64,000 nt of DNA from Patescibacteria group bacterium (GTDB lineage: Bacteria; Patescibacteriota; Patescibacteriia; JAHJFT01). Shown here piece by piece: positions 6,841-30,609 of the stretch; within the stretch, counting starts at the first letter, position 1, and the number at the start of each line of letters is the position of its first letter. Location: the NCBI GenBank assembly GCA_028710985.1, contig JAQTTB010000001.1:523014-587013 (forward strand), read 5' to 3'. The notes below the pieces were generated by a model. The model saw nothing but the letters and a program-made list of their open reading frames with translations. It did no database searches and was not told the origin of the DNA. Position numbers and translations under genes: made by a program.

Positions 6841-6915
6841 CTGTAGGGGCAGGCCTTGTGCCTGCCCTGTTTTAATGCCGTCTAAAATAGGCGACCGCAA
6901 GGGTCGCCCCTACAG
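6841..6915. terminator. compound nested-hairpin element downstream of thrS (REP-like, GTAGGGGC family)
   Basis: Outer arms CTGTAGGGGC/GCCCCTACAG enclose two inner hairpins (GGCAGGCCTTGTGCCTGCC and GGCGACCGCAAGGGTCGCC). Confidence 0.5.
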
Positions 6916-19237: not shown

Positions 19238-19273
19238 GGTTTAAACGTAGTGACAAGTCGCGACTTGTCACTA
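19238..19273. terminator. perfect 36-nt palindrome between gyrB and secE
   Basis: AAACGTAGTGACAAGTCGCGACTTGTCACTACGTTT. Confidence 0.5.
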
Positions 19274-19288
19274 CGTTTGATTTTGCGA

Positions 19289-21364
<2,076 letters not shown>

Positions 21365-21465
21365 TTAACTTAATTTATGCCAATATTTTATCATTTTTTA
21401 TAGCAATTAGCAAGGTAAAATATCCGCTTGGAACAAGGCGAAAATTCTGATATAATTGACGCATT

Positions 21466-22338
21466 ATGGCAAACACAAATAGTTTTACCGAAGAAGAGCA
21501 GAAGCGCACGAAATTACTCGCCTTGAGCTATTGGTATGTCACGCACAAGGTCAAGCTGCGCCGCGTCGGGCTGGGCATCCTAATCGGCATGGCCGCAATT
21601 TTTTGGCTGTACGCTCTCTGGGGAGTGCTGGATCTTTTTGTAATATCATATTCAAGATATAAGGCCATGATGAATGACCTAACTTCAGGGCCGGCTTATT
21701 CGCAGGAATGGATTCGCGTCAACGCGCCGCGGCCGATCGATGCGGGTACGGCCCGGGTTTTCCCGAGCGGCGAAAAATTTGATTTTTTGGCTAAAATTAG
21801 CAATGAAAGCCCGATATTTTGGGCCGAATTCAACTATAAATTCACCTTCGCGGGCGGCGAAACCACCCGGCGCCACGGCTTTATCCTGCCGACCGAAGAA
21901 AAATGGCTGGCTGAATTGGCTTTTTCCGGCACGGCCCGACCCGAGAGCGCCAAGCTTGTTTTGGAAGACGTCGCTCGGCATCGACTAGATGCGCACGAGG
22001 TTCCGGATTATGGGGAATGGAAAAATGAACGCTTCAATTTCAAAATTACGGATATTGCGCAGGAATCCGCACTTTCGCTCGGAAAAGGTACGGTCATGAA
22101 AACAAAATTTACGGTGCAGAATCTCTCGGCATACGGATACCGGAGCGTGGGGTTTTACGTCATCGCTTACCGTGGCGCTACGCCGTCCGGAGTAAATTTT
22201 GTCGCATTGAGTGATTTTCGCTCCGGGGAAACCCGCGCGGTTGAAGTAAGCTGGTTTGACAGTTTGGCGCAGGTAAGTAAAATGGAGATTGCGCCCGAAG
22301 TCAATATTTTTGACGAGGGCAATTACCTGCCGCTCTAA
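21466..22338 (+). CDS. hypothetical membrane-anchored protein
   Basis: 290-aa ORF with one TM helix (LGILIGMAAIFWLYALWGVL). Confidence 0.5.
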   Translation: MANTNSFTEEEQKRTKLLALSYWYVTHKVKLRRVGLGILIGMAAIFWLYALWGVLDLFVISYSRYKAMMNDLTSGPAYSQEWIRVNAPRPIDAGTARVFPSGEKFDFLAKISNESPIFWAEFNYKFTFAGGETTRRHGFILPTEEKWLAELAFSGTARPESAKLVLEDVARHRLDAHEVPDYGEWKNERFNFKITDIAQESALSLGKGTVMKTKFTVQNLSAYGYRSVGFYVIAYRGATPSGVNFVALSDFRSGETRAVEVSWFDSLAQVSKMEIAPEVNIFDEGNYLPL

Positions 22339-23430
22339 ATGTTTGTAAAACTAAAAAATTTCGACTGGATTTTGTTTGCTGCGGTTTTTTTATTGTGCTG
22401 TATCGGCCTCGCGGCTATTTATTCGGTGGCGCTCTCTCAGCAGGAACCGGATTTTTTTAATTTCAAAAAACAACTGGCCGTGCTCGCAGTCGGAGTAATT
22501 GTTATTTTTTTCATCGCCGCGTCCAATTATCGGTTGCTTCGGAATTACCGTCGGTTAATTTATATCGGCGGCCTCGCGCTGCTTGCCGGCGTATTGCTTT
22601 TTGGACAAACCATCCGCGGCACGACCGGCTGGTTCTCAATCGGCCCGCTCAATTTTCAGCCCGTTGAGCTCGCCAAGATTTGTCTCCTCGTGCTCATGGC
22701 GAGTTATTTGAGCGAGCGGAGCGGCATACATTTTGGTTTTAAACAGCTCGTTGCGGTTTCGGCGCTTGGCGGCGCGTATATTCTGCTTGTCATGGGCCAG
22801 CCGGACCTTGGTTCCGCCATGGTGCTTTTTTCACTGTGGTTCGGCCTGCTTTTTTTCGGCAATACCCGGAAAAGATTTATCGCCCTGATACTTGTCGCAA
22901 TTATCATGGTCAGTATCTTTGGATGGTTTTTTGGACTCCAGGATTTTCAGCGCGACCGCGTGCTTACTTTTTTGGACCCGGAGCGCGATCCACTCGGTCA
23001 GGGATATAACGTAACTCAGGCCGTAATTGCAATTGGCGCCGGCGGATTTTTTGGTCGCGGCCTGGGCTTCGGCTCGCAGTCCCAGCTGAAATTCCTGCCT
23101 GAAAGCCAGACTGATTTTATTTTCGCGGTCGTTGCCGAAGAGCTTGGACTCGTCGGGGTCGCTCTCATGATCGGTCTTTTTTCCATCGTACTCTGGCGTC
23201 TCTTTAAAATCTGTGCTAGGTCGGGCGATGATTTCAGCCTTTTTTTGGCGCTCGGCATCATTATTCTGCTCGCGACGCAGATCGGAGTGAACATCGCCAT
23301 GAATCTCGGCTGGTTCCCGGTCACCGGCATCACTCTGCCCTTCTTGAGCTACGGCGCCAGTTCGCTTCTTACTTTTCTCTTGATGATCGGCATTGCCGAA
23401 AGCATCGCGGTGCATGAGGCGCCGCGCTAA
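22339..23430 (+). CDS. SEDS-family peptidoglycan glycosyltransferase (FtsW/RodA)
   Basis: About ten TM helices and FtsW/RodA/SpoVE-type conserved blocks. Confidence 0.88.
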   Translation: MFVKLKNFDWILFAAVFLLCCIGLAAIYSVALSQQEPDFFNFKKQLAVLAVGVIVIFFIAASNYRLLRNYRRLIYIGGLALLAGVLLFGQTIRGTTGWFSIGPLNFQPVELAKICLLVLMASYLSERSGIHFGFKQLVAVSALGGAYILLVMGQPDLGSAMVLFSLWFGLLFFGNTRKRFIALILVAIIMVSIFGWFFGLQDFQRDRVLTFLDPERDPLGQGYNVTQAVIAIGAGGFFGRGLGFGSQSQLKFLPESQTDFIFAVVAEELGLVGVALMIGLFSIVLWRLFKICARSGDDFSLFLALGIIILLATQIGVNIAMNLGWFPVTGITLPFLSYGASSLLTFLLMIGIAESIAVHEAPR

Positions 23431-23468
23431 CCCTGTCGCAATCGTGCGCATTCTGCTATCATATACCT

Positions 23469-23804
23469 ATGTTTAATTTCAACAGCCAATTTTCCCTGCC
23501 GGAGAATCTGAAGATAATGGGCAATTGTCCGCTCTGCGGGAGCTCGACGCAAAAGCTTGAGGCGCGCGTTTTGCGCGAAACGACCGAGAATCAGCTCGTT
23601 CATCTTCATTGCGCCGCGTGCCTTGGATCCGTCATTGCGCTTTTTATGGCCTCCGGAGTCGGGGTTGCCTCGTACGGCCTGATTACGGACTTGAGCTACG
23701 ATGATGTACTTAAATTCCGCAATTCCGACGAGCTCACCCTGGACCATGTGATTCGCGCCCACGAAGAGGTTGATTCTCCGCAATTTTTGGCTAAGATTTC
23801 CTAA
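23469..23804 (+). CDS. hypothetical zinc-ribbon protein
   Basis: CPLCG...HCAAC motif. Competes with an antisense ORF 23427..23843, so confidence is low. Confidence 0.3.
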   Translation: MFNFNSQFSLPENLKIMGNCPLCGSSTQKLEARVLRETTENQLVHLHCAACLGSVIALFMASGVGVASYGLITDLSYDDVLKFRNSDELTLDHVIRAHEEVDSPQFLAKIS

Positions 23805-23865
23805 TCTTGACAGCCGGAGCGGATTCTGGTTAAATATAGGCACATTTTAAATATTTTTAGAGAAT

Positions 23866-24594
23866 ATGACTGAACTCACTTTAAACGTTAATAAGCGCGC
23901 CGACGGTGCCGACAAGGCCAGGGCCCTGGTCCGCCAGAGTTTGGTTCCGGGCGTTGTCTACGGACACGGCATTGCGAACCAAAATATTGTTTTAGAAAAA
24001 AACGTGCTGGAAAAAATATATAAAGCGGCCGGCGAAGCAAAACTCATTGATCTTAAAATCGGCGATGATAAGCCGGTCAAGGTTTTGATACAGGATATTC
24101 AGAGAGAACCGGTGCATGATATGCCGATTCATGTTGATTTTCGCCAGGTGCGCATGGATGAAAAAATTATTGCCGACATGGTCATCAAATTCATCGGCGA
24201 GTCGGCGGCCGTCAAAGAACTCGGCGGCACGCTGGTTAAAAATTATTACACCCTGCAGGTTGAATGTATGCCGAGCGAGCTTTCCAATGAGATCGTTGTC
24301 GATATTTCAAATCTCAAAAATTTTGAGGACGTAATTCGGGTAAAGGATCTTGCAATACCGCCGTCAATCCATGTTTTGGATGAGCCGGAGCGCAGCATCG
24401 CGGTGGTTAAGCCGCCGATGACCGAAGCCGAGATTGCTGAACTTGAAAAAGCGCCGGCCGCCGGCGTTGATCAGGTTGAAGTTGCCGCCAAGGGCAAGGC
24501 CCCGGAAGAGGGTGAAGAAGGCGCCGAAGAAGCCGCTCCTGCGGCTGGTGCGAAACCCGAAAAAGAAGAGCCAAAAAAAGAGAAAAACAAATGA
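23866..24594 (+). CDS. rplY: 50S ribosomal protein L25 (Ctc/general-stress form)
   Basis: L25 N-domain plus C-terminal domain and acidic/Lys tail. Confidence 0.9.
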   Translation: MTELTLNVNKRADGADKARALVRQSLVPGVVYGHGIANQNIVLEKNVLEKIYKAAGEAKLIDLKIGDDKPVKVLIQDIQREPVHDMPIHVDFRQVRMDEKIIADMVIKFIGESAAVKELGGTLVKNYYTLQVECMPSELSNEIVVDISNLKNFEDVIRVKDLAIPPSIHVLDEPERSIAVVKPPMTEAEIAELEKAPAAGVDQVEVAAKGKAPEEGEEGAEEAAPAAGAKPEKEEPKKEKNK

Positions 24595-25691
24595 AAATCG
24601 CGATCCGTGAGTTAGCAAACAAAATTTTTAAACACGCCGAAGATTCGGGTGCGGAACGACGAAGAAAGTTACTTCTCGCCGCGCTTGCTCTCGGCGTTGT
24701 TTTAATTTGCGCCGCGTCAGTCGGGACATATCTCACGGTCGCTTCGCGCTATGCCACGCCCGCGGTTTCCGATGAGCCGTCCTCGGCAGTGGCTGCGGAT
24801 ACCGCGCCGAGAACAATTGACGGCGTGATGGCTGCGGCCGGCCGCACGAATCTTGTACCCATTGCCGCGATGATTGAAAACCACATTGAATCGCGGCCGC
24901 CGTCCGGCATCTCGCGCGCGAGCCTGGTATTCGAAGCCCCGGCCGAGGCGGGCATCACGCGGTTCTTGGCGATTTTTGACCAGGATTTTTCAAGCGATGA
25001 AGTCGGCCCGGTCCGTTCGGCGCGCGATTATTATCTTGACTGGGCGGCCGAGTTCGGTGCGCTGTACGCGCATTGCGGCGGCAGTCCGCTTGCTTTGCAG
25101 AAGATTCCGTCATATCCGATTTTTGACCTGAACGAATTTTACAACGGCCGTTTTTTCTGGCGCGATAACGAACGCACGGCGCCGCATAATGTTTATTCAA
25201 ATTCCGATTTGCTCCGCCAGGCGGTTGAGGCCAAAGAGATGGACGCGGTCGCGGCTTACGAATCATGGCGCTTTAAAGACGATCAGCCGTCCGCTGCGCC
25301 GTCAGCGAATGAAATTACAATTAATTTTTCCACGCCCGCATATCTCACGCGCTGGGTCTACGCGTCCGGTACCAATGAATATGTGAGATTCCACGGCGAA
25401 GTTCAGCATATAGAAAAAAACGGCGACGCCATTAAAGCCAAAAATATCGCCATTGTCGTCACCGAAGCCACGGTGATTGATTACGAGGGCCGTCTGAATC
25501 TCCGCACCCTCGGCAAGGGCAAGGCCTGGGTTTTCCGCGACGGCGGCGCGCTTGAGGCGACCTGGCAGAAAGACGATATTCAGGACCGCCTGCGCTTCTA
25601 TGATGTCACCGGCCGGGAGATTGAATTCAACCGCGGCGTGACGTGGGTGGAAGTGGCAACCGACGCCTCTAAAATAAAATACTCAAAATAA
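24591..25691 (+). CDS. DUF3048-like membrane-anchored protein
   Basis: N-terminal TM anchor; GITRFLAIF, SARDYYLDWA and HCGGS blocks typical of YerB/DUF3048-like proteins (assigned from memory). Confidence 0.45.
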   Translation: MKIAIRELANKIFKHAEDSGAERRRKLLLAALALGVVLICAASVGTYLTVASRYATPAVSDEPSSAVAADTAPRTIDGVMAAAGRTNLVPIAAMIENHIESRPPSGISRASLVFEAPAEAGITRFLAIFDQDFSSDEVGPVRSARDYYLDWAAEFGALYAHCGGSPLALQKIPSYPIFDLNEFYNGRFFWRDNERTAPHNVYSNSDLLRQAVEAKEMDAVAAYESWRFKDDQPSAAPSANEITINFSTPAYLTRWVYASGTNEYVRFHGEVQHIEKNGDAIKAKNIAIVVTEATVIDYEGRLNLRTLGKGKAWVFRDGGALEATWQKDDIQDRLRFYDVTGREIEFNRGVTWVEVATDASKIKYSK

Positions 25692-25700
25692 AAAAATAAA

Positions 25701-25730
25701 TGTATGGGTCGCATATATGCGCCCCGTACA
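25701..25730. terminator. bidirectional hairpin terminator (GCATATATGC-loop family)
   Basis: TGTATGGGTCGCATATATGCGCCCCGTACA between convergent genes. Confidence 0.55.
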
Positions 25731-25731
25731 T

Positions 25732-26583
25732 TTATTTTCCCCACCCAATTACTCTCACCCGTCCGCACATATCGTCATACGGTTTAATCCGGTCGCGCGG
25801 GCCGATAAATTTGATTATTTTTTTGCCCTGCTCGGGATCAATTTCGAAATATGACTGCATGGAGTTGAGATTTGGCAAAATTTTCCGAATCTCGTTGATT
25901 AGCCGTCCGTAATATTTAAGTCCGTCTTTGCCGCCGTCAAGCGCGGCGCGCGGCTCGTATTTTTTCACATCCGCGGGGCACTCGCGCCACACCGCGGTCG
26001 GAAGATAGGGGAGATTGGCCACGATCAAAATATTGGGATTCTTTTTCCAGAATTCAATCGGCAAAGCCTTGAGCAAATCGGATTTTATAAAATCAATCTT
26101 TGCGCCAAGTTTTTTCGCGTTTTGTCGCGCGGTCTTAAGCGCGGCCGCCGAATTATCAATCGCAATGACTTTTACGCGCGGCTTGTTTTTGGCAATCGCA
26201 ATGGCAAGCGCGCCCGAGCCGGTACCTACATCGATTACGGCTGCGCGCGGATGTTTATTCAAATACTTCAACGCCAGGCTCACAAGCATTTCGCTTTCCG
26301 GCCGTGGAATAAGAACCTTTTTATTCACGCCGATCTTGAGTTTGTAAAAATATTTTATGCCCGTGAGATAGGCGACTGGCTCATGCCTGGTGCGGCGCCG
26401 AATTAACTTGGTAAATCGCGCCAGCTCCGGTGCTCGCAATTCTCTGTCCCGGTGCGCGAACAAAAAAACCCGGTCGCGTCCGAGCGCGTGCGCCAATAGA
26501 ATTTCGGCATCGAGATCTGGTGAATCAATATGATTCTGTTGTAAAATTTTCATTGCCCTGGAAAGGGCTTGGGTGATGGTCAT
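25732..26583 (-). CDS. prmC: release-factor glutamine methyltransferase PrmC/HemK (with C-terminal extension)
   Basis: SAM-binding VIDVGTGSGA and NLPY (NPPY-type) motifs. Confidence 0.9.
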   Translation of the reverse strand: MTITQALSRAMKILQQNHIDSPDLDAEILLAHALGRDRVFLFAHRDRELRAPELARFTKLIRRRTRHEPVAYLTGIKYFYKLKIGVNKKVLIPRPESEMLVSLALKYLNKHPRAAVIDVGTGSGALAIAIAKNKPRVKVIAIDNSAAALKTARQNAKKLGAKIDFIKSDLLKALPIEFWKKNPNILIVANLPYLPTAVWRECPADVKKYEPRAALDGGKDGLKYYGRLINEIRKILPNLNSMQSYFEIDPEQGKKIIKFIGPRDRIKPYDDMCGRVRVIGWGK

Positions 26584-26617
26584 ATCGTTATCATATCATG
26601 TTTATTGCATCATTCGG

Positions 26618-26645
26618 TAGGGGCGTATTGCAATACGCCCCTACA
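26618..26645. repeat. REP-like perfect palindrome GTAGGGGCGTATTGCAATACGCCCCTAC
   Basis: 28-nt perfect inverted repeat. Member of the GTAGGGGCG...CGCCCCTAC family. Confidence 0.7.
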
Positions 26646-26776
26646 AGACGACCGCGCATTGACAACCCGGCGCGATTTTGGTACAAATCAATATCCCGCC
26701 GGAATATTTCCGGCCGGAAAACCATGGGTAAGGCTGGCGTCGCAATGCGGCGTTGGTAGGCCCAAGGAGGAAAGAG

Positions 26777-27388
26777 ATGTCCGAAAAGAAAATGATGAGT
26801 CCGAGGCAACTTCGCGAGCTCATGGCCGTGGTCAGCCGGCACCTGTCTATTCATCTGCCGGCCAAGGTGGCGCAGAGCGTGATCGACAAGCCCGGCGATT
26901 TGGAGTTTGAGCTCTGCGAGCTCTTCTGGCGCATCGCCGAAGCGAACGAGAAGGCAAGAAGGGCGGTGGAAGCGAAGCACATCATCGACTGCGACGCCGA
27001 CCCCTATCTGCTCGGCCTCTTCACCGTGGAAGAGCACCGGAGAAGCGGTCAGTTGGAGTGGGACCCGGACAAGGTCGTTCTTTACCTTTCCGATTTGCAG
27101 AGGGGTCGTAGTGTTGTCCAGGGCCACGCGCTCCGCAAGGAACTCCAAAATCAGTCGGTTCTGAACGCCTGCGTCCTGGATTACCTGCTCGTTCATCCAA
27201 ACCTCATTCCCATCATGTGGATGAGGATGCGGGTCTACTTCTGGGGTACGATTTATTGCGATCGAGAAGGTGACCTCTGCGTTCGCGGCCTCTTCTGGGA
27301 AGACGAAAAAGGGTGGTTCTGGCGCTACAAGCATCTTTCGCACGATTTCTACCGCGACGACACCGCGGCGGTTTCTGCAAGCGTCTAG
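26777..27388 (+). CDS. hypothetical Trp-rich protein
   Basis: 203-aa ORF (MSEKKMMSPRQL...) with a strong GGAGGAAAGAG SD. Bracketed by REP palindromes and a CCCGTTTGCATTAAATTGCAACGGG plus T-run terminator. Confidence 0.45.
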   Translation: MSEKKMMSPRQLRELMAVVSRHLSIHLPAKVAQSVIDKPGDLEFELCELFWRIAEANEKARRAVEAKHIIDCDADPYLLGLFTVEEHRRSGQLEWDPDKVVLYLSDLQRGRSVVQGHALRKELQNQSVLNACVLDYLLVHPNLIPIMWMRMRVYFWGTIYCDREGDLCVRGLFWEDEKGWFWRYKHLSHDFYRDDTAAVSASV

Positions 27389-27621
27389 TAGCGGCGCATT
27401 GCAATACGCTGCTACGCGCCGACCCCCTGACCCGTTTGCATTAAATTGCAACGGGTCTTTTTTATTTAAATGCGAGTAGGGGCGGACCCCTGCGTCCGCC
27501 CTGTTCGTCGGGCGTCCGCCCCTACCATTTGTCGTCACCAACAAACGGCCGGTCGTCGATTTTCACCGCGTAGGGGCGAACGGCCGTTCGCCCCTACCGT
27601 TGATCCGTAATACGCCCCTAC
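27388..27621. repeat. cluster of four GTAGGGGCG-family palindromes plus a half-site
   Basis: Palindromes at 27388-27415 (GTAGCGGCGCATTGCAATACGCTGCTAC), 27476-27526 (GTAGGGGCGGAC...GTCCGCCCCTAC) and 27570-27597 (GTAGGGGCGAACGGCCGTTCGCCCCTAC), plus the half-site AATACGCCCCTAC at 27609-27621. Confidence 0.7.
27429..27467 (+). terminator. intrinsic terminator of the 26777 gene
   Basis: GACCCGTTTGCATTAAATTGCAACGGGTC followed by TTTTTTATTT. Confidence 0.6.
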
Positions 27622-27645
27622 CGGCGCAACCCCAATTCATTCCAT

Positions 27646-27673
27646 TTGATTTTAGGGGGAGGTATGATACAAT
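27646..27673 (+). promoter_or_regulatory. putative promoter of paralog A
   Basis: TTGATT, 16-nt spacer, TACAAT. Confidence 0.35.
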
Positions 27674-27701
27674 AATATCAATTTAAAATTAAATTAAAAT
27701 T

Positions 27702-28421
27702 ATGGACAAAATCAACCCATCCATGCCCGGCGAGGCAAAAAATATGTCCGCGGTCTGGATAATCGTCGCCATCGTAATCGTCGCCGTCGCGCTCGGCGGA
27801 TTAATGTATTATTTTCAAACCCTGTCGCAAGAAAAATTCGTTGCGCAGGAACAGGCGATTAATGATTTGCGCGAAGAACTTGGTCAGCCGACGGTCGTGG
27901 CTGAGGAAGGGGTGGAAGAGGAAGGTTCGGCCGAGGAAGAATATCTTACCTTTGAATCCGAACCAGTTTCTGTTTTACCCGAGATATTCTCGTTTGAATA
28001 TGCCAAAGGTTGGCATATTTATCATGAATATGATCATGGATGGGGCGAGGAAAAAGAAATTAGCAAAATATTAGTTTCGCCTGACCCGCTTCAGATTGCG
28101 CTTGACGCCGAATATTTACCTCAAGTTTATATTCTTGTCGATTTTGACTCCGTGGATACTCTTGATGAGTTCGTCGATCGGAAGTATGGAGATTCGGTGG
28201 AAACGAGTGAGGACGTAATAATTGCCAACTATCCCGGAAAAAAGATACACGTTGTAGATGACAAGATCAGCGGAGAAGATATTGAGGTTTATGCCTTCGT
28301 ATCCCCCAATGCCGCGTATTCTATTTATATTTATTATCCCGGCATAAAACAAGCAAGCATTGACCTCCCGGCAGAATATCAGCGCATCATTGATTCATTC
28401 AAGATTGAGTCAGGCAGTTAA
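27702..28421 (+). CDS. paralog A: N-terminally membrane-anchored secreted protein with acidic linker
   Basis: MDKINPSMPGEAKNMSAVWIIVAIVIVAVALGG signal-anchor. First ~55 aa are ~90% identical to paralog B and the C-terminal domain is unrelated. GGGGGAGG SD. Confidence 0.6.
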   Translation: MDKINPSMPGEAKNMSAVWIIVAIVIVAVALGGLMYYFQTLSQEKFVAQEQAINDLREELGQPTVVAEEGVEEEGSAEEEYLTFESEPVSVLPEIFSFEYAKGWHIYHEYDHGWGEEKEISKILVSPDPLQIALDAEYLPQVYILVDFDSVDTLDEFVDRKYGDSVETSEDVIIANYPGKKIHVVDDKISGEDIEVYAFVSPNAAYSIYIYYPGIKQASIDLPAEYQRIIDSFKIESGS

Positions 28422-28475
28422 TCGCACGATTCAAAAAAGGCCGCGCGTTTATTGCCGGCCTTTTTGAATATACGC

Positions 28476-28545
28476 GCAGGGGCGTATTGTCGCGTAGGGG
28501 CGAACGGCCGTTCGCCCCTACCGTTGATCCGCAATACGCCCCTAC
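28476..28545. repeat. second copy of the GTAGGGGCG palindrome block
   Basis: GCAGGGGCGTATTG half-site, GTAGGGGCGAACGGCCGTTCGCCCCTAC (28494-28521) and the AATACGCCCCTAC half-site. The ~95-nt block 28487-28581 is near-identical to 27563-27657. Confidence 0.7.
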
Positions 28546-28570
28546 CGGCGCAACCCCAATTCATTCCATT

Positions 28571-28600
28571 TGATTTTATCCGGGGGGGGGGTGGTATAAT
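28571..28600 (+). promoter_or_regulatory. promoter of paralog B with a G10 homopolymer in the spacer (candidate phase-variable promoter)
   Basis: TTGATT (28571-28576); the spacer contains G10 (28582-28591); extended -10 TGGTATAAT. Spacer is 18 nt with G10 and would be 17 nt with G9. Confidence 0.45.
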
Positions 28601-28630
28601 GCAATCAATAATTAAATCATTAAAATACAT

Positions 28631-29233
28631 ATGGACAAACTAAATGCATCCATGCCCGGCGTGGCAAAAAATATGTCCGCGGTCTGGATTATCGTCGCTA
28701 TCATCATCGTTGCCGCAATTCTCGGCGGAATGATGTATTATTTTCAAACCCTGTCGCAAGAAAAATTCGTTGCGCAGGAAGAGGCGATTGAGGCTCTACG
28801 CGCCGAGTTAAGCGAACCGGCCGCTTCAACTGCGGTAGAAGAAGAGGAGGCGGTTGCGGGAGATCAGGCCAAAGTCGAAGCAATTGATGAGCTTCAATAT
28901 GAAAACGATTATTATGGATTCAGCCTGTCATTCCCAGAGACATGGAGGGGCTATTCCGTTTATCATGAAGCCAATTCAATACATTTTGGTTTCGCGGCGG
29001 AGAAAGATCTCATGGCGATAGAAGTGATGGATTTGGAGGATTGGAAGATAATGAAAAAAGAATTGGATCTTCCGGGCCATGAAGCCGATGCGCTCTATAG
29101 CGCAGCCTACAGGGGCGAGAATGATAATTTCGCATTCTTTGGATGGGCGGCCCAAGACACGGTAAACGATGAGTTTATTCTTTCCAGAAGGATGGAAGTA
29201 GGGTCAATAATTAAAACGTTTAAAGCGAAATAG
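28631..29233 (+). CDS. paralog B: N-terminally membrane-anchored secreted protein
   Basis: MDKLNASMPGVAKNMSAVWIIVAIIIVAAILGG. Shared leader and N-terminus with paralog A; distinct C-terminal domain. Confidence 0.6.
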   Translation: MDKLNASMPGVAKNMSAVWIIVAIIIVAAILGGMMYYFQTLSQEKFVAQEEAIEALRAELSEPAASTAVEEEEAVAGDQAKVEAIDELQYENDYYGFSLSFPETWRGYSVYHEANSIHFGFAAEKDLMAIEVMDLEDWKIMKKELDLPGHEADALYSAAYRGENDNFAFFGWAAQDTVNDEFILSRRMEVGSIIKTFKAK

Positions 29234-29239
29234 TTAAAT

Positions 29240-29290
29240 AAAAAATCGCCCCGACGTTCACTTCATTCAGTCGGGACGATTTTTATTTTC
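29240..29290. terminator. bidirectional terminator between paralog B and prfA
   Basis: ATCGCCCCGAC...GTCGGGACGAT hairpin flanked by A- and T-runs. Confidence 0.55.
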
Positions 29291-29310
29291 TCAGTTCCCG
29301 ATTCACCGAT

Positions 29311-30381
<1,071 letters not shown>

Positions 30382-30402
30382 AAAAATAAATAATGGATAT
30401 CC

Positions 30403-30544
30403 GCTCGTCGTCATTCCGAGCGAAGCCCCGATCGCAATCGGGGCAAAGCCGAGGAATCCCTTTTCTTCAATCCAGCCAGTCTGATTAAAGAGATTCCTCC
30501 GCTCATCCCCCGCGTTGCGGGGGACTCGGTCGGAATGACGAGCG
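30403..30544 (-). ncRNA. structured 5' leader of prfA with a 19-bp long-range stem enclosing GC hairpins (candidate regulatory RNA or MITE-like insert)
   Basis: CGCTCGTCGTCATTCCGAG (30403-30421) pairs with CTCGGTCGGAATGACGAGCG (30525-30544). Inner hairpins GCCCCGATCGCAATCGGGGC and CCCCCGCGTTGCGGGGG. Confidence 0.35.
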
Positions 30545-30556
30545 TTGTATTTAAAA

Positions 30557-30609
30557 ATCCCCGCGCGGGGATTTTGTGGGCGAGTGTAAGGGCGATTCAC
30601 GAATCGCCC
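30557..30609 (-). terminator. rpmE terminator, two hairpins
   Basis: GGGCGATTCACGAATCGCCC, then AATCCCCGCGCGGGGATTTT flanked by A- and T-runs. Confidence 0.6.

Follow-up and report, generated by a model that had tools for sequence, protein, structure and literature searches.

REP-type double-foot palindromes in a small Patescibacteria genome

REPs and their RAYT transposases have been studied mostly in Proteobacteria and, through genome surveys, in Cyanobacteria and a few other phyla. The mechanistic model comes from E. coli, where TnpA_REP, a HuH Y1 enzyme, binds a folded single-stranded DNA hairpin together with GTAG, cleaves it and recombines it (Ton-Hoang et al. 2012, PMC3333891; Messing et al. 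2012, PMC3479197; Corneloup et al. 2021, PMC8266576). The relatives that matter most here are those of TnpA_REP subclass 2.4 (Quentin et al. 2018, PMC6006769), a subclass identical to RAYT group 4 (Bertels et al. 2017, PMC5581495). According to PMC6006769, the REPs of subclass 2.4 are long, with three basal G-C pairs and a foot at either end (the double foot, GT[AG]G…C[TC]AC), and REPs also occur as in-frame insertions in tnpA_REP.

We analysed a 64-kb stretch of DNA from a Patescibacteria MAG (this whole stretch is the window below), whose palindromes an initial annotation had called REP/BIME-like. The term is apt, as the GTAG foot, G+C-rich stem, extragenic position and head-to-head dimers are those of REPs. 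More narrowly, the elements are very probably double-foot REPs of the GTAG superfamily, the form that serves the TnpA_REP/RAYT Y1 (HuH) transposases of subclass 2.4, or RAYT group 4, as cognate substrate. With the REPs of that subclass they share GTAG/CTAC feet, three basal G-C pairs, a long perfect stem and a scattered occurrence across many phyla. They differ in their host, a phylum that the sections of PMC6006769 and PMC5581495 drawn on here do not list for subclass 2.4 or group 4, and in that the window's 64 kb hold no RAYT and most copies sit in one small island rather than being dispersed. Several further traits recur from the GTAG superfamily as delineated by Di Nocera et al. (2013, PMC3733652) and Nunvar et al. 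(2010, PMC2817692): the tag GTAG borders a stem-loop rich in G+C, complementary changes in the stem set sub-families apart, dimers are head-to-head and carry GTAG at their outer ends (6843–6913 and 27476–27525 in the window), and intergenic regions between co-directional or convergent genes are preferred. In that scheme the tag is unpaired and at one end, whereas here GTAG pairs with CTAC and the unit reads the same on both strands. The E. coli elements are of the same class, but they are imperfect, bulged palindromes that occur in hundreds of copies and flank tnpA_REP, whereas the window's palindromes are perfect and the cognate genes, found in other genomes, have a REP within the coding sequence. 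The dimer at 6843–6913 resembles REPINs (Bertels and Rainey 2011, PMC3116915) in joining two inverted REPs across a short spacer into a larger hairpin; REPINs, known at high copy number from Pseudomonas and enterobacteria, were described for RAYT groups 2 and 3, whereas the units described here are mostly single self-symmetric hairpins. What we describe is a known kind of element, a small selfish DNA hairpin linked to RAYT tyrosine transposases in ~20 bacterial phyla, in an unusual host, a Patescibacteria bacterium with a small genome.

Palindrome copies in the window and their folding

The family of GTAGGGGCG…CGCCCCTAC palindromes is real and held up to checks of its coordinates, to shuffling and to folding. 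Searched on both strands, the exact 9-mer arm matches the window 11 times, compared with a mean of 0.26 and a maximum of 2 in 100 dinucleotide-preserving shuffles. Eight of the ten REP copies lie within ~2 kb of one another, inside a 2.7-kb insertion, and every copy is extragenic apart from one that touches a stop codon. All copies that had been listed are present, and the perfect 28-nt palindromes at 27570 and 28494 start where they had been placed; the first begins at 26617, one nucleotide before the recorded 26618, and a further perfect GTAG…CTAC palindrome with a different stem, at 19247–19274, had been overlooked.

The copy at 26617–26644 defines type a, a perfect 28-nt double-foot palindrome (GTAGGGGCG TATTGCAATA CGCCCCTAC; by halves, GTAG-GGGCGTATTG and CAATACGCCC-CTAC), and occupies the left edge of the insertion, with the start codon of prmC 33 nt downstream of it. 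A degenerate type a copy (27388–27415, GTAGCGGCGCATTGCAATACGCTGCTAC) is 81% identical to it, with one compensatory G-C to C-G swap; it overlaps the last base of the stop codon of ORF 26777–27388 and, once extended inwards by 6 bases, makes up a 34-nt inverted repeat together with 26617–26650. There follows a 50-nt structured element bracketed by GTAG…CTAC (27476–27525), a head-to-head dimer made of a left REP, GTAG-GGGCGGAC-ccctgc-GTCCGCCC, and a truncated inverted partner. Type b, also a perfect 28-nt palindrome, has the core AACGGCCGTT and occurs twice. Its first copy (27570–27597) belongs to an 88-nt block at 27567–27654 and is followed by the right half of a type a REP (27609–27621, plus strand, AATACGCCCCTAC). 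The second (28494–28521) starts another 88-nt block, at 28491–28578, and is nested: the left half of a type a REP at 28476–28489 (GCAGGGGCGTATTG) and a right half at 28531–28545 (GCAATACGCCCCTAC), both on the plus strand, make up one type a REP whose apex is split by 42 nt that hold this type b unit.

Two elements lie away from the insertion. The head-to-head REP dimer at 6843–6913, which is REPIN/BIME-like, begins 25 nt after the thrS stop codon and reads GTAG-GGGCAGGC-cttgt-GCCTGCCC, a 22-nt spacer, and GGCGACC-gcaa-GGGTCGCC-CCTAC. The REP at 19247–19274, with its different stem, is a perfect 28-nt double-foot palindrome (GTAGTGACAAGTCGCGACTTGTCACTAC, halves GTAGTGACAAGTCG and CGACTTGTCACTAC) placed 14 nt after the stop codon of a 690-aa minus-strand ORF (19289–21361). 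Independent support for the sequence comes from two SRR22315509 Logan contigs that match the window at 100% identity and whose ends fall exactly on the REPs.

Full copies all have a 5′ GTAG foot and a 3′ CTAC foot, and in all copies but the divergent one at 19247 the foot is followed by GGG…CCC, which gives the stem three basal G-C pairs. The perfect 28-nt palindromes have the size (~20–40 nt) and the stable stem-loop of a REP unit: folded as single-stranded DNA, the copy at 26617 reaches −13.5 kcal/mol (z = −6.6). The other intact elements (27476–27525, 27570–27597, the nested 28476–28545 and 6843–6913) fold at −18.1 to −30.8 kcal/mol with z of −3.8 to −5.7, including −18.1 (z −3.9) for 27476–27525, −22.1 (z −4.9) for the 6843–6913 dimer and −30.8 (z −5.7) for the nested arrangement, folded over 28471–28550. 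The degenerate copy at 27388 folds no better as single-stranded DNA than its shuffles (z = −1.0). As in BIMEs and REPINs, units are joined into inverted dimers (head-to-head at 6843–6913 and 27476–27525) and clustered, with 8 of them in 2 kb. The window combines intact perfect palindromes with a decayed copy, with half copies and with a nested REP, which suggests several insertion or rearrangement events of different ages.

The same elements and their transposases in other genomes

The motif is by no means confined to the window. The general pattern matches more than 120 stretches of viral contigs; among the viral-contig matches listed, lengths peak at 28 and 47 nt, the 47-nt form consisting of two hairpins within GTAG…CTAC. 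Both 28-mers of the window recur identically in more than 120 stretches from ~20 phyla, three Patescibacteria MAGs included (among the matches listed). The palindromic core co-varies freely: among the 127 genome matches listed for a pattern that permits 256 cores, just 8 of them palindromic, 120 (94.5%) are perfect palindromes. Across the flanks of 125 copies (8 nt on each side) we found no conserved or duplicated sequence, bar a weak pyrimidine/purine bias. The nesting of one REP in another occurs in the window alone among 223 full REPs and is therefore no general mark of insertion into the apex of a hairpin. In the 120 genome loci listed, 92 of 133 copies are intergenic, compared with ~17% of bases that are non-coding; co-directional genes flank the element in 51 cases, convergent genes in 15 and divergent genes in 6, a preference also reported for REPs in PMC3733652.

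The association with a RAYT that the initial annotation had proposed to look for exists in other genomes, where Y1 transposase genes of RAYT type contain or adjoin identical 28-mers. Unbiased clustering of the ORFs of the 120 loci listed returned one family near the elements, and in 8 of these 120 loci the 28-mer is inside or abuts the gene (the cluster's ninth and more divergent member, L187, is 4.7 kb away from its element and was left out of the count). The eight proteins, of 168–238 aa, match Pfam Y1_Tnp, and their best match is to the NCBIfam model NF047646, REP-associated tyrosine transposase (E 1e-16 to 1e-21), with scores under that model's 80-bit equivalog cut-off. Their alignment has MPNH[ILV]H, WQR and YIxNNP, with REP-encoded peptides between the motifs; the motifs of subclass 2.4 (NHIH, WQ, YIxNNP) are thus present in the REP-associated Y1 transposases of genomes other than the source. 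One RAYT of subclass 2.4, the 169-aa protein of locus L136, is encoded by a gene that itself contains the AACGGCCGTT unit. The family has at least 8000 members, under the JGI name "REP element-mobilizing transposase RayT", and no Patescibacteria label appears among the best 120 RAYT homologues.

Within the 64-kb window itself, no RAYT or IS200/IS605 gene turned up. Searching with tblastn using 9 RAYTs, and with a profile against the six-frame translation, we found no RAYT or Y1 transposase; the sole matches were non-significant and fell on REP-encoded peptides.

The island between prmC and prfA

The 2.7-kb insertion (26584–29310) separates prmC (25732–26583, minus strand, Pfam PrmC_N) from prfA (29311–30600, minus strand, Pfam PCRF/RF-1), splitting an otherwise conserved pair. 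In three syntenic relatives, prfA and prmC are 15–39 nt apart, without the insertion, and no REP elements were found in 12.8 kb of each. The island contains three plus-strand ORFs (26777–27388, 27702–28421 and 28631–29233), none with a Pfam family. The homologues of ORF 26777–27388, which encodes protein PHW53_02645, do not travel with REPs. That eight of ten copies share one 2-kb stretch is compatible with passive import along with the island and with local activity alike.

The repeats had been put forward as a possible cause of a gene duplication, a proposal that the divergence of the duplicates does not bear out. The 88-nt block at 27567–27654 (plus strand), made of a type b REP, the right half of a type a REP and 33 further nt, ends in the −35-like hexamer TTGATT and recurs at 28491–28578, 99% identical, upstream of the paralogous gene. 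The genes behind the two blocks are only 87% identical, and their proteins share 50% amino-acid identity over ~139 aligned N-terminal residues, beyond which there is no significant alignment. Because the paralogues are old and only the REP-started upstream block is near-identical, sequence comparison suggests that this block was later converted or copied, rather than that REPs mediated the origin of the duplication.

How the elements may have arisen and what they mean

By analogy with the RAYT/REP pairs of E. coli, S. maltophilia and Marinomonas, a unit exposed on single-stranded DNA would fold into a hairpin; as in other such pairs, a RAYT would recognise this hairpin plus the GTAG at its foot, cut nearby and join strands, so that units could be copied, inverted, truncated and clustered. 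They may in this way have come to populate the variable island that splits prfA–prmC and, outside it in the window, the 3′ ends of two or more genes. To our knowledge, experimental mobilisation of subclass 2.4 REPs has not been demonstrated. It is possible, if short of probable, that these REPs are instead relics that came with a horizontally acquired 2.7-kb island and, with no RAYT in the genome, became unmobilised, decaying passengers. Such a history would fit the position of eight of ten copies within an insertion absent from three syntenic relatives, the lack of a RAYT in the 64-kb window and of Patescibacteria among the best 120 RAYT homologues, and the existence of decayed and half copies; genomes that retain REPs after loss of tnpA_REP are also noted in both PMC3333891 and PMC6006769. 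It sits less well with the copies beyond the island near core genes, after thrS (6843) and after the 690-aa ORF (19247), and with three copies that remain perfect 28-nt palindromes, while a REP nested in the apex of another, and a REP-led 88-nt block that is 99% identical where the genes behind it are 87% identical, suggest recent events inside this genome. A more active history, in which the REPs moved without a resident RAYT (the transposase coming from a host bacterium, a phage or transient DNA), with REP pairs bracketing and moving cargo and building the prfA–prmC island, strikes us as unlikely; the candidate cargoes under this reading would be the orphan homologue of a diversity-generating retroelement (DGR) target within the 34-nt inverted repeat (26617–27415) and the 88-nt promoter block before two surface-protein paralogues.

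Other readings dispense with REPs altogether. Host-selected RNA or transcription elements (terminators, stabilisers of mRNA 3′ ends or attenuators), as opposed to mobile DNA, might be suspected from the copies just past stop codons (6843, 19247 and 27388), from the prevalence of co-directional and convergent gene contexts and from the 3′-end action reported for REPs elsewhere. Yet no copy is followed by a T-run (AAGACG, CGTTGA and AGCCTC follow), a terminator scan calls none, and separate sequences of hairpin plus T-run, canonical-looking by eye, adjoin at ~27430–27465, 28429–28469 and 29246–29285. One copy also occupies a divergent promoter region (33 nt ahead of prmC), Rfam gives no match, and a host-evolved terminator would not show identical 28-mers in ~20 phyla and inside RAYT genes, which leaves this reading improbable. 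Rho-independent terminators as such were rejected, the G+C-rich hairpin having no direct T-run. Operators for a dimeric DNA-binding protein that controls the island genes are very unlikely: the half-sites GTAGGGGCG and CGCCCCTAC are conserved at a fixed 10 bp, with copies upstream of both paralogous genes, but the 10-bp spacer is self-complementary in 94.5% of the matches listed, which points to hairpin or cruciform formation and not to mere spacing. Furthermore, longer two-hairpin forms retain just the feet, copies stand beside unrelated genes in ~20 phyla, and several are located after genes. Least credible of all is that the palindromes are DGR remnants, such as the hairpin past a variable region. 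ORF 26777–27388 does belong to a family targeted by DGRs elsewhere; its homologues P0098 and P0053 adjoin bAvd and reverse-transcriptase genes, the homologous loci carry, over 121 nt, a second version of the 3′ end of the ORF that is template-like and 80–83% identical, and the degenerate palindrome abuts the stop codon of the window's ORF. However, the window has no reverse transcriptase, Avd (tblastn with proteins of the homologous loci, E > 0.4) or template repeat, the homologues' DGR loci lack GTAGGGG elements, and the same palindromes are found far away from this ORF as well as in genomes that lack it. With these components missing from the window and GTAGGGG from the homologues' loci, a DGR origin is largely refuted. 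Two further classes were set aside, a CRISPR array on account of irregular spacings (771, 182 and 924 nt) and self-complementary units, and MITEs (70–300 bp, with terminal inverted repeats and target-site duplications) since the units measure 28–71 nt and the flanks of 125 copies show no duplication. Rfam at gathering thresholds and a tRNA scan returned nothing in the window, so the elements do not belong to a curated RNA family and do not mark a tRNA-linked integration site, and a full-text literature search for the arm sequences yielded only unrelated primer and promoter matches.

These double-foot REPs reveal no new mechanism. Their practical bearing is that REP hairpins terminate short-read contigs, mark a variable island and produce small ORFs that are spurious (VGANGRSPL, GVLQYAPT), and recognising them aids annotation and assembly. 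The initial annotation held such families to be little described in reduced genomes, which is plausible given that the host is a Patescibacteria MAG and that the REP phrase was not found in the top-ranked papers of a combined REP/CPR full-text search. The window adds a clear REP case for a small Patescibacteria genome (main contig ~0.74 Mb), in which non-coding DNA is scarce, and the presence of the same 28-nt units, word for word, in ~20 phyla among the matches listed fits a patchy, probably horizontal spread of subclass 2.4 RAYTs.

REP copies in the window and their folding

The window holds a family of repetitive extragenic palindromes (REPs) of the double-foot form, with GTAG at the 5' end and CTAC at the 3' end. 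Three are perfect 28-nt palindromes: one at 26617-26644 (GTAGGGGCG-TATTGCAATA-CGCCCCTAC) and two, at 27570-27597 and 28494-28521, that share the core AACGGCCGTT. A 50-nt element (27476-27525) has the arms of these palindromes at both ends, a degenerate copy (27388-27415) shares one base with the stop codon that ends ORF 26777-27388, half copies lie at 27609-27621, 28476-28489 and 28531-28545, and a distant copy (6843-6913) sits 25 nt 3' of the thrS stop codon. The initial annotation had reported three perfect 28-nt palindromes with further full and half copies; these were borne out in the sequence of 26400-28800, except that the first starts at 26617 rather than 26618. Scanning the window for GTAG and a perfect hairpin surfaced a copy overlooked there, a 28-nt GTAG…CTAC palindrome with a different stem (GTAGTGACAAGTCGCGACTTGTCACTAC, 19247-19274), 14 nt past the stop of minus-strand ORF 19289-21361.

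On both strands of the window, the exact arm matches 11 times versus 0.26 expected from shuffles (maximum 2). Folded as single-stranded DNA, the 26617 copy reaches -13.5 kcal/mol (z = -6.6) and the remaining intact elements -18.1 to -30.8 kcal/mol (z = -3.8 to -5.7), while the degenerate copy folds no more strongly than its shuffles. Two Logan contigs from run SRR22315509 (L001 and L242) are 100% identical to window 21165-26645 and 26617-27596, so the palindrome sequence is not a single-assembly artefact. Both terminate exactly at REP palindromes; since these independent short-read contigs stop there, these REP hairpins break assemblies.

Units run in the order GTAG, GGG, variable self-complementary core, CCC, CTAC, and longer forms set two unlike hairpins head to head within a single GTAG…CTAC bracket. 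The copy near thrS is laid out as GTAG-GGGCAGGC-cttgt-GCCTGCCC, a 22-nt spacer and GGCGACC-gcaa-GGGTCGCC-CCTAC. At 28476-28545, a unit is interrupted exactly at its apex, between TATTG and CAATA, by 42 nt in which a complete AACGGCCGTT unit stands between TCGC and CGTTGATCCG; the resulting structure is a nested hairpin of -30.8 kcal/mol. Because it is the sole REP-in-REP case among 223 full units in all sequences collected, we regard this nesting as a local event and no rule.

The insertion between prmC and prfA

Eight of the window's ten REP copies fall inside 26584-29310, between prmC (25732-26583) and prfA (29311-30600), both on the minus strand and identified by Pfam. Three relatives (PrmC identity 54-55%) keep the whole gene order of the window (gyrB, hypothetical, ftsW, hypothetical, L25, DUF3048, prmC, prfA, L31, queA, metK), but their prfA-prmC gap is 15-39 nt compared with 2,727 nt here, which makes 26584-29310 an insertion. 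Its three plus-strand ORFs lack a Pfam match, and the syntenic relatives (12.8 kb each) contain no GTAGGGG element or double-foot palindrome. As called mechanically from a GTG start, the prfA ORF spans 429 aa versus 353-354 aa in these relatives; translation probably begins ~75 codons downstream of that GTG, and the intergenic region toward L31 would then be longer. Between prfA and the converging gene 28631-29233, a hairpin with an A-run on one side and a T-run on the other (29246-29285) looks like a bidirectional terminator, and its arm, CGCCCCGAC, is one base away from the REP arm.

The paralogous genes 27702-28421 and 28631-29233 encode proteins that align at 50% amino-acid identity over ~139 N-terminal residues and not significantly past them; over their first 173 nt the genes agree at 87%. 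Upstream of each lies an 88-nt stretch, beginning 3 nt before a REP and ending in a -35-like TTGATT, that is 99% identical between the two. Given this disparity between genes and upstream block, the gene duplication is old and the REP-led block was copied or homogenised later. The initial annotation's suggestion that the repeats may be responsible for the duplication is not supported as it stands: REP-associated recombination or copying fits the late history of the 88-nt block, which does not establish REPs as the cause of the duplication. The promoter-like spacer from TTGATT to the -10 hexamer measures 16 nt before 27702-28421, with a G5 tract (27655-27659), versus 19 nt before 28631-29233, with a G10 tract (28583-28592). 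Judged from sequence, slipped-strand changes in this tract may provide phase variation of a membrane-anchored protein.

ORF 26777-27388 (203 aa) matches PHW53_02645 of a Patescibacteria group bacterium at 100% identity; that protein is encoded on a 744,538-bp contig, and the window comes from a Patescibacteria MAG. The ORF belongs to a Patescibacteria family with 162 hits. In two other genomes (L243 6001-8454 and L245 6001-8604), its homologue adjoins bAvd and reverse-transcriptase genes and is accompanied by a 121-nt template-like copy of the ORF's 3' end, 80-83% identical. These neighbours and this copy identify the homologue as the target of a diversity-generating retroelement (DGR); since reverse transcriptase, Avd and template repeat are all missing from the window, the ORF is here an orphan DGR-target homologue. 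A 34-nt inverted repeat (26617-26650 and 27382-27415, 85% complementary), consisting of a REP and six inward bases (AAGACG / CGTCTA), brackets the ORF, and the two together look like a REP-gene-REP cassette.

Distribution in genomes and viral contigs

The general pattern GTAGGGGCG-N4-34-CGCCCCTAC occurs in at least 120 stretches of viral contigs, with lengths peaking at 28 nt, the size of a single hairpin, and at 47 nt, where one bracket encloses two hairpins; the matches listed vary widely in their self-complementary cores. A strict pattern, limited to the two cores seen in the window and to mixtures of them, occurs in at least 120 stretches of species-representative genomes. The pattern search proposed in the initial annotation thus places the motif well beyond the window, the strict-pattern matches listed falling in about 20 phylum-level groups: Cyanobacteria, Chloroflexota, Planctomycetota, Nitrospirota, Omnitrophota, Atribacterota, Bacteroidota/Ignavibacteria, Calditrichota, Sumerlaeota, Zixibacteria, WOR-3, Bipolaricaulota, Gemmatimonadota, Deinococcota, Myxococcota, Desulfobacterota, Pseudomonadota and three Patescibacteria MAGs (Kuenenbacteria, Falkowbacteria, Peregrinibacteria).

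Although only 8 of the 256 cores permitted by the strict pattern are palindromic, 120 of the 127 matches listed (94.5%) are perfect palindromes, strong evidence from sequence comparison that it is the hairpin that is being maintained. Within 8 nt on both flanks of the listed copies, no sequence is conserved or duplicated. On a crude ORF map of the genome loci listed, 92 of 133 copies are intergenic versus ~17% non-coding bases, and neighbouring genes are co-directional (51), convergent (15) or divergent (6). A 32-nt variant, GTAGGGGCGGTGCTGCCCTGTGCCGCCCCTAC, is present in 8 copies, both orientations counted, in IMG/VR contigs with a common gene order (L002, L024, L030, L031, L077, L080); the copy at L002 4998-5029 lies between two ORFs common to the contig set.

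An associated transposase and the identity of the units

All ORFs of 90 aa or longer in 240 loci were clustered with no prior assumption. Most of the clusters that recurred were common phage gene blocks or ubiquitous families (response regulators, ABC ATPases). One was distinct: a 168-238 aa protein whose gene contains or adjoins the 28-mer in 8 genome loci (units include L136 4308-4335, L220 7703-7730, L238 2523-2550, L137 6099-6126, L122 3133-3160 and L166 3126-3153). A ninth member (L187), more divergent and 4.7 kb from its element, was left out of the count. These proteins match Pfam Y1_Tnp (PF01797), and within NCBIfam they score best against NF047646, REP-associated tyrosine transposase (E 1e-16 to 1e-21, below the model's 80-bit cut-off). 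Their alignment shows MPNH[ILV]H (HuH), WQR and YIxNNP, and a profile search returned at least 8000 relatives, with the JGI name "REP element-mobilizing transposase RayT". The anticipated association with a REP-associated Y1 transposase (RAYT, or TnpA_REP) was thereby found in other genomes; the 64-kb window contains no RAYT, nor do the viral-contig stretches carrying the general motif (at least 120 listed), and a Patescibacteria label is absent among the best 120 of at least 8000 homologues, a tiny part of the family. Because 28 nt alone would shift the frame, an insert carrying the unit must total a multiple of 3; a REP inside the tnpA_REP gene is already described for subclass 2.4 (PMC6006769).

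In the account of TnpA_REP subclass 2.4 by Quentin et al. 2018 (PMC6006769), the transposases carry NH[IFV]H, WQ and YIxNNP, and the REPs are either canonical and long, with three G-C pairs at the stem bottom, or "double foot", with 5' GT[AG]G and 3' C[TC]AC. The window units and the eight-locus RAYTs correspond exactly to that account. The group 4 RAYTs of Bertels et al. 2017, found in 61 species from 17 classes, are the same as subclass 2.4, and Di Nocera et al. 2013 (PMC3733652) defined a wider GTAG-tagged REP superfamily with head-to-head dimers and a co-directional/convergent intergenic preference. The window elements are double-foot REPs of RAYT subclass 2.4 / group 4 type, which narrows the correct initial label "REP/BIME-like".

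A transcription terminator as primary identity is excluded, as no T-run follows any copy and a terminator scan called none; separate terminator-like hairpin and T-run sequences adjoining REP copies count against it too. An operator for a dimeric protein fails to explain the self-complementary spacer or the spread across phyla, and a DGR remnant is excluded because the window lacks DGR parts and homologues of ORF 26777-27388 in other genomes lack flanking REPs. That the units are relics that arrived with the island is a serious alternative as to activity, not identity, and one we consider rather unlikely.

In other RAYT/REP pairs, the folded single-stranded REP is the substrate of a HuH Y1 enzyme that carries out cleavage and recombination and that needs, for its activity, the REP structure and a conserved motif preceding it (PMC3333891, PMC8266576). 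By analogy, the double-foot REPs of the window would be processed as folded single strands by such an enzyme, cleaved and recombined. The 15 papers ranked highest for REP and CPR terms together do not contain the REP phrase. The kind of element is already known, and it is the host, a member of the Patescibacteria, that is unusual.
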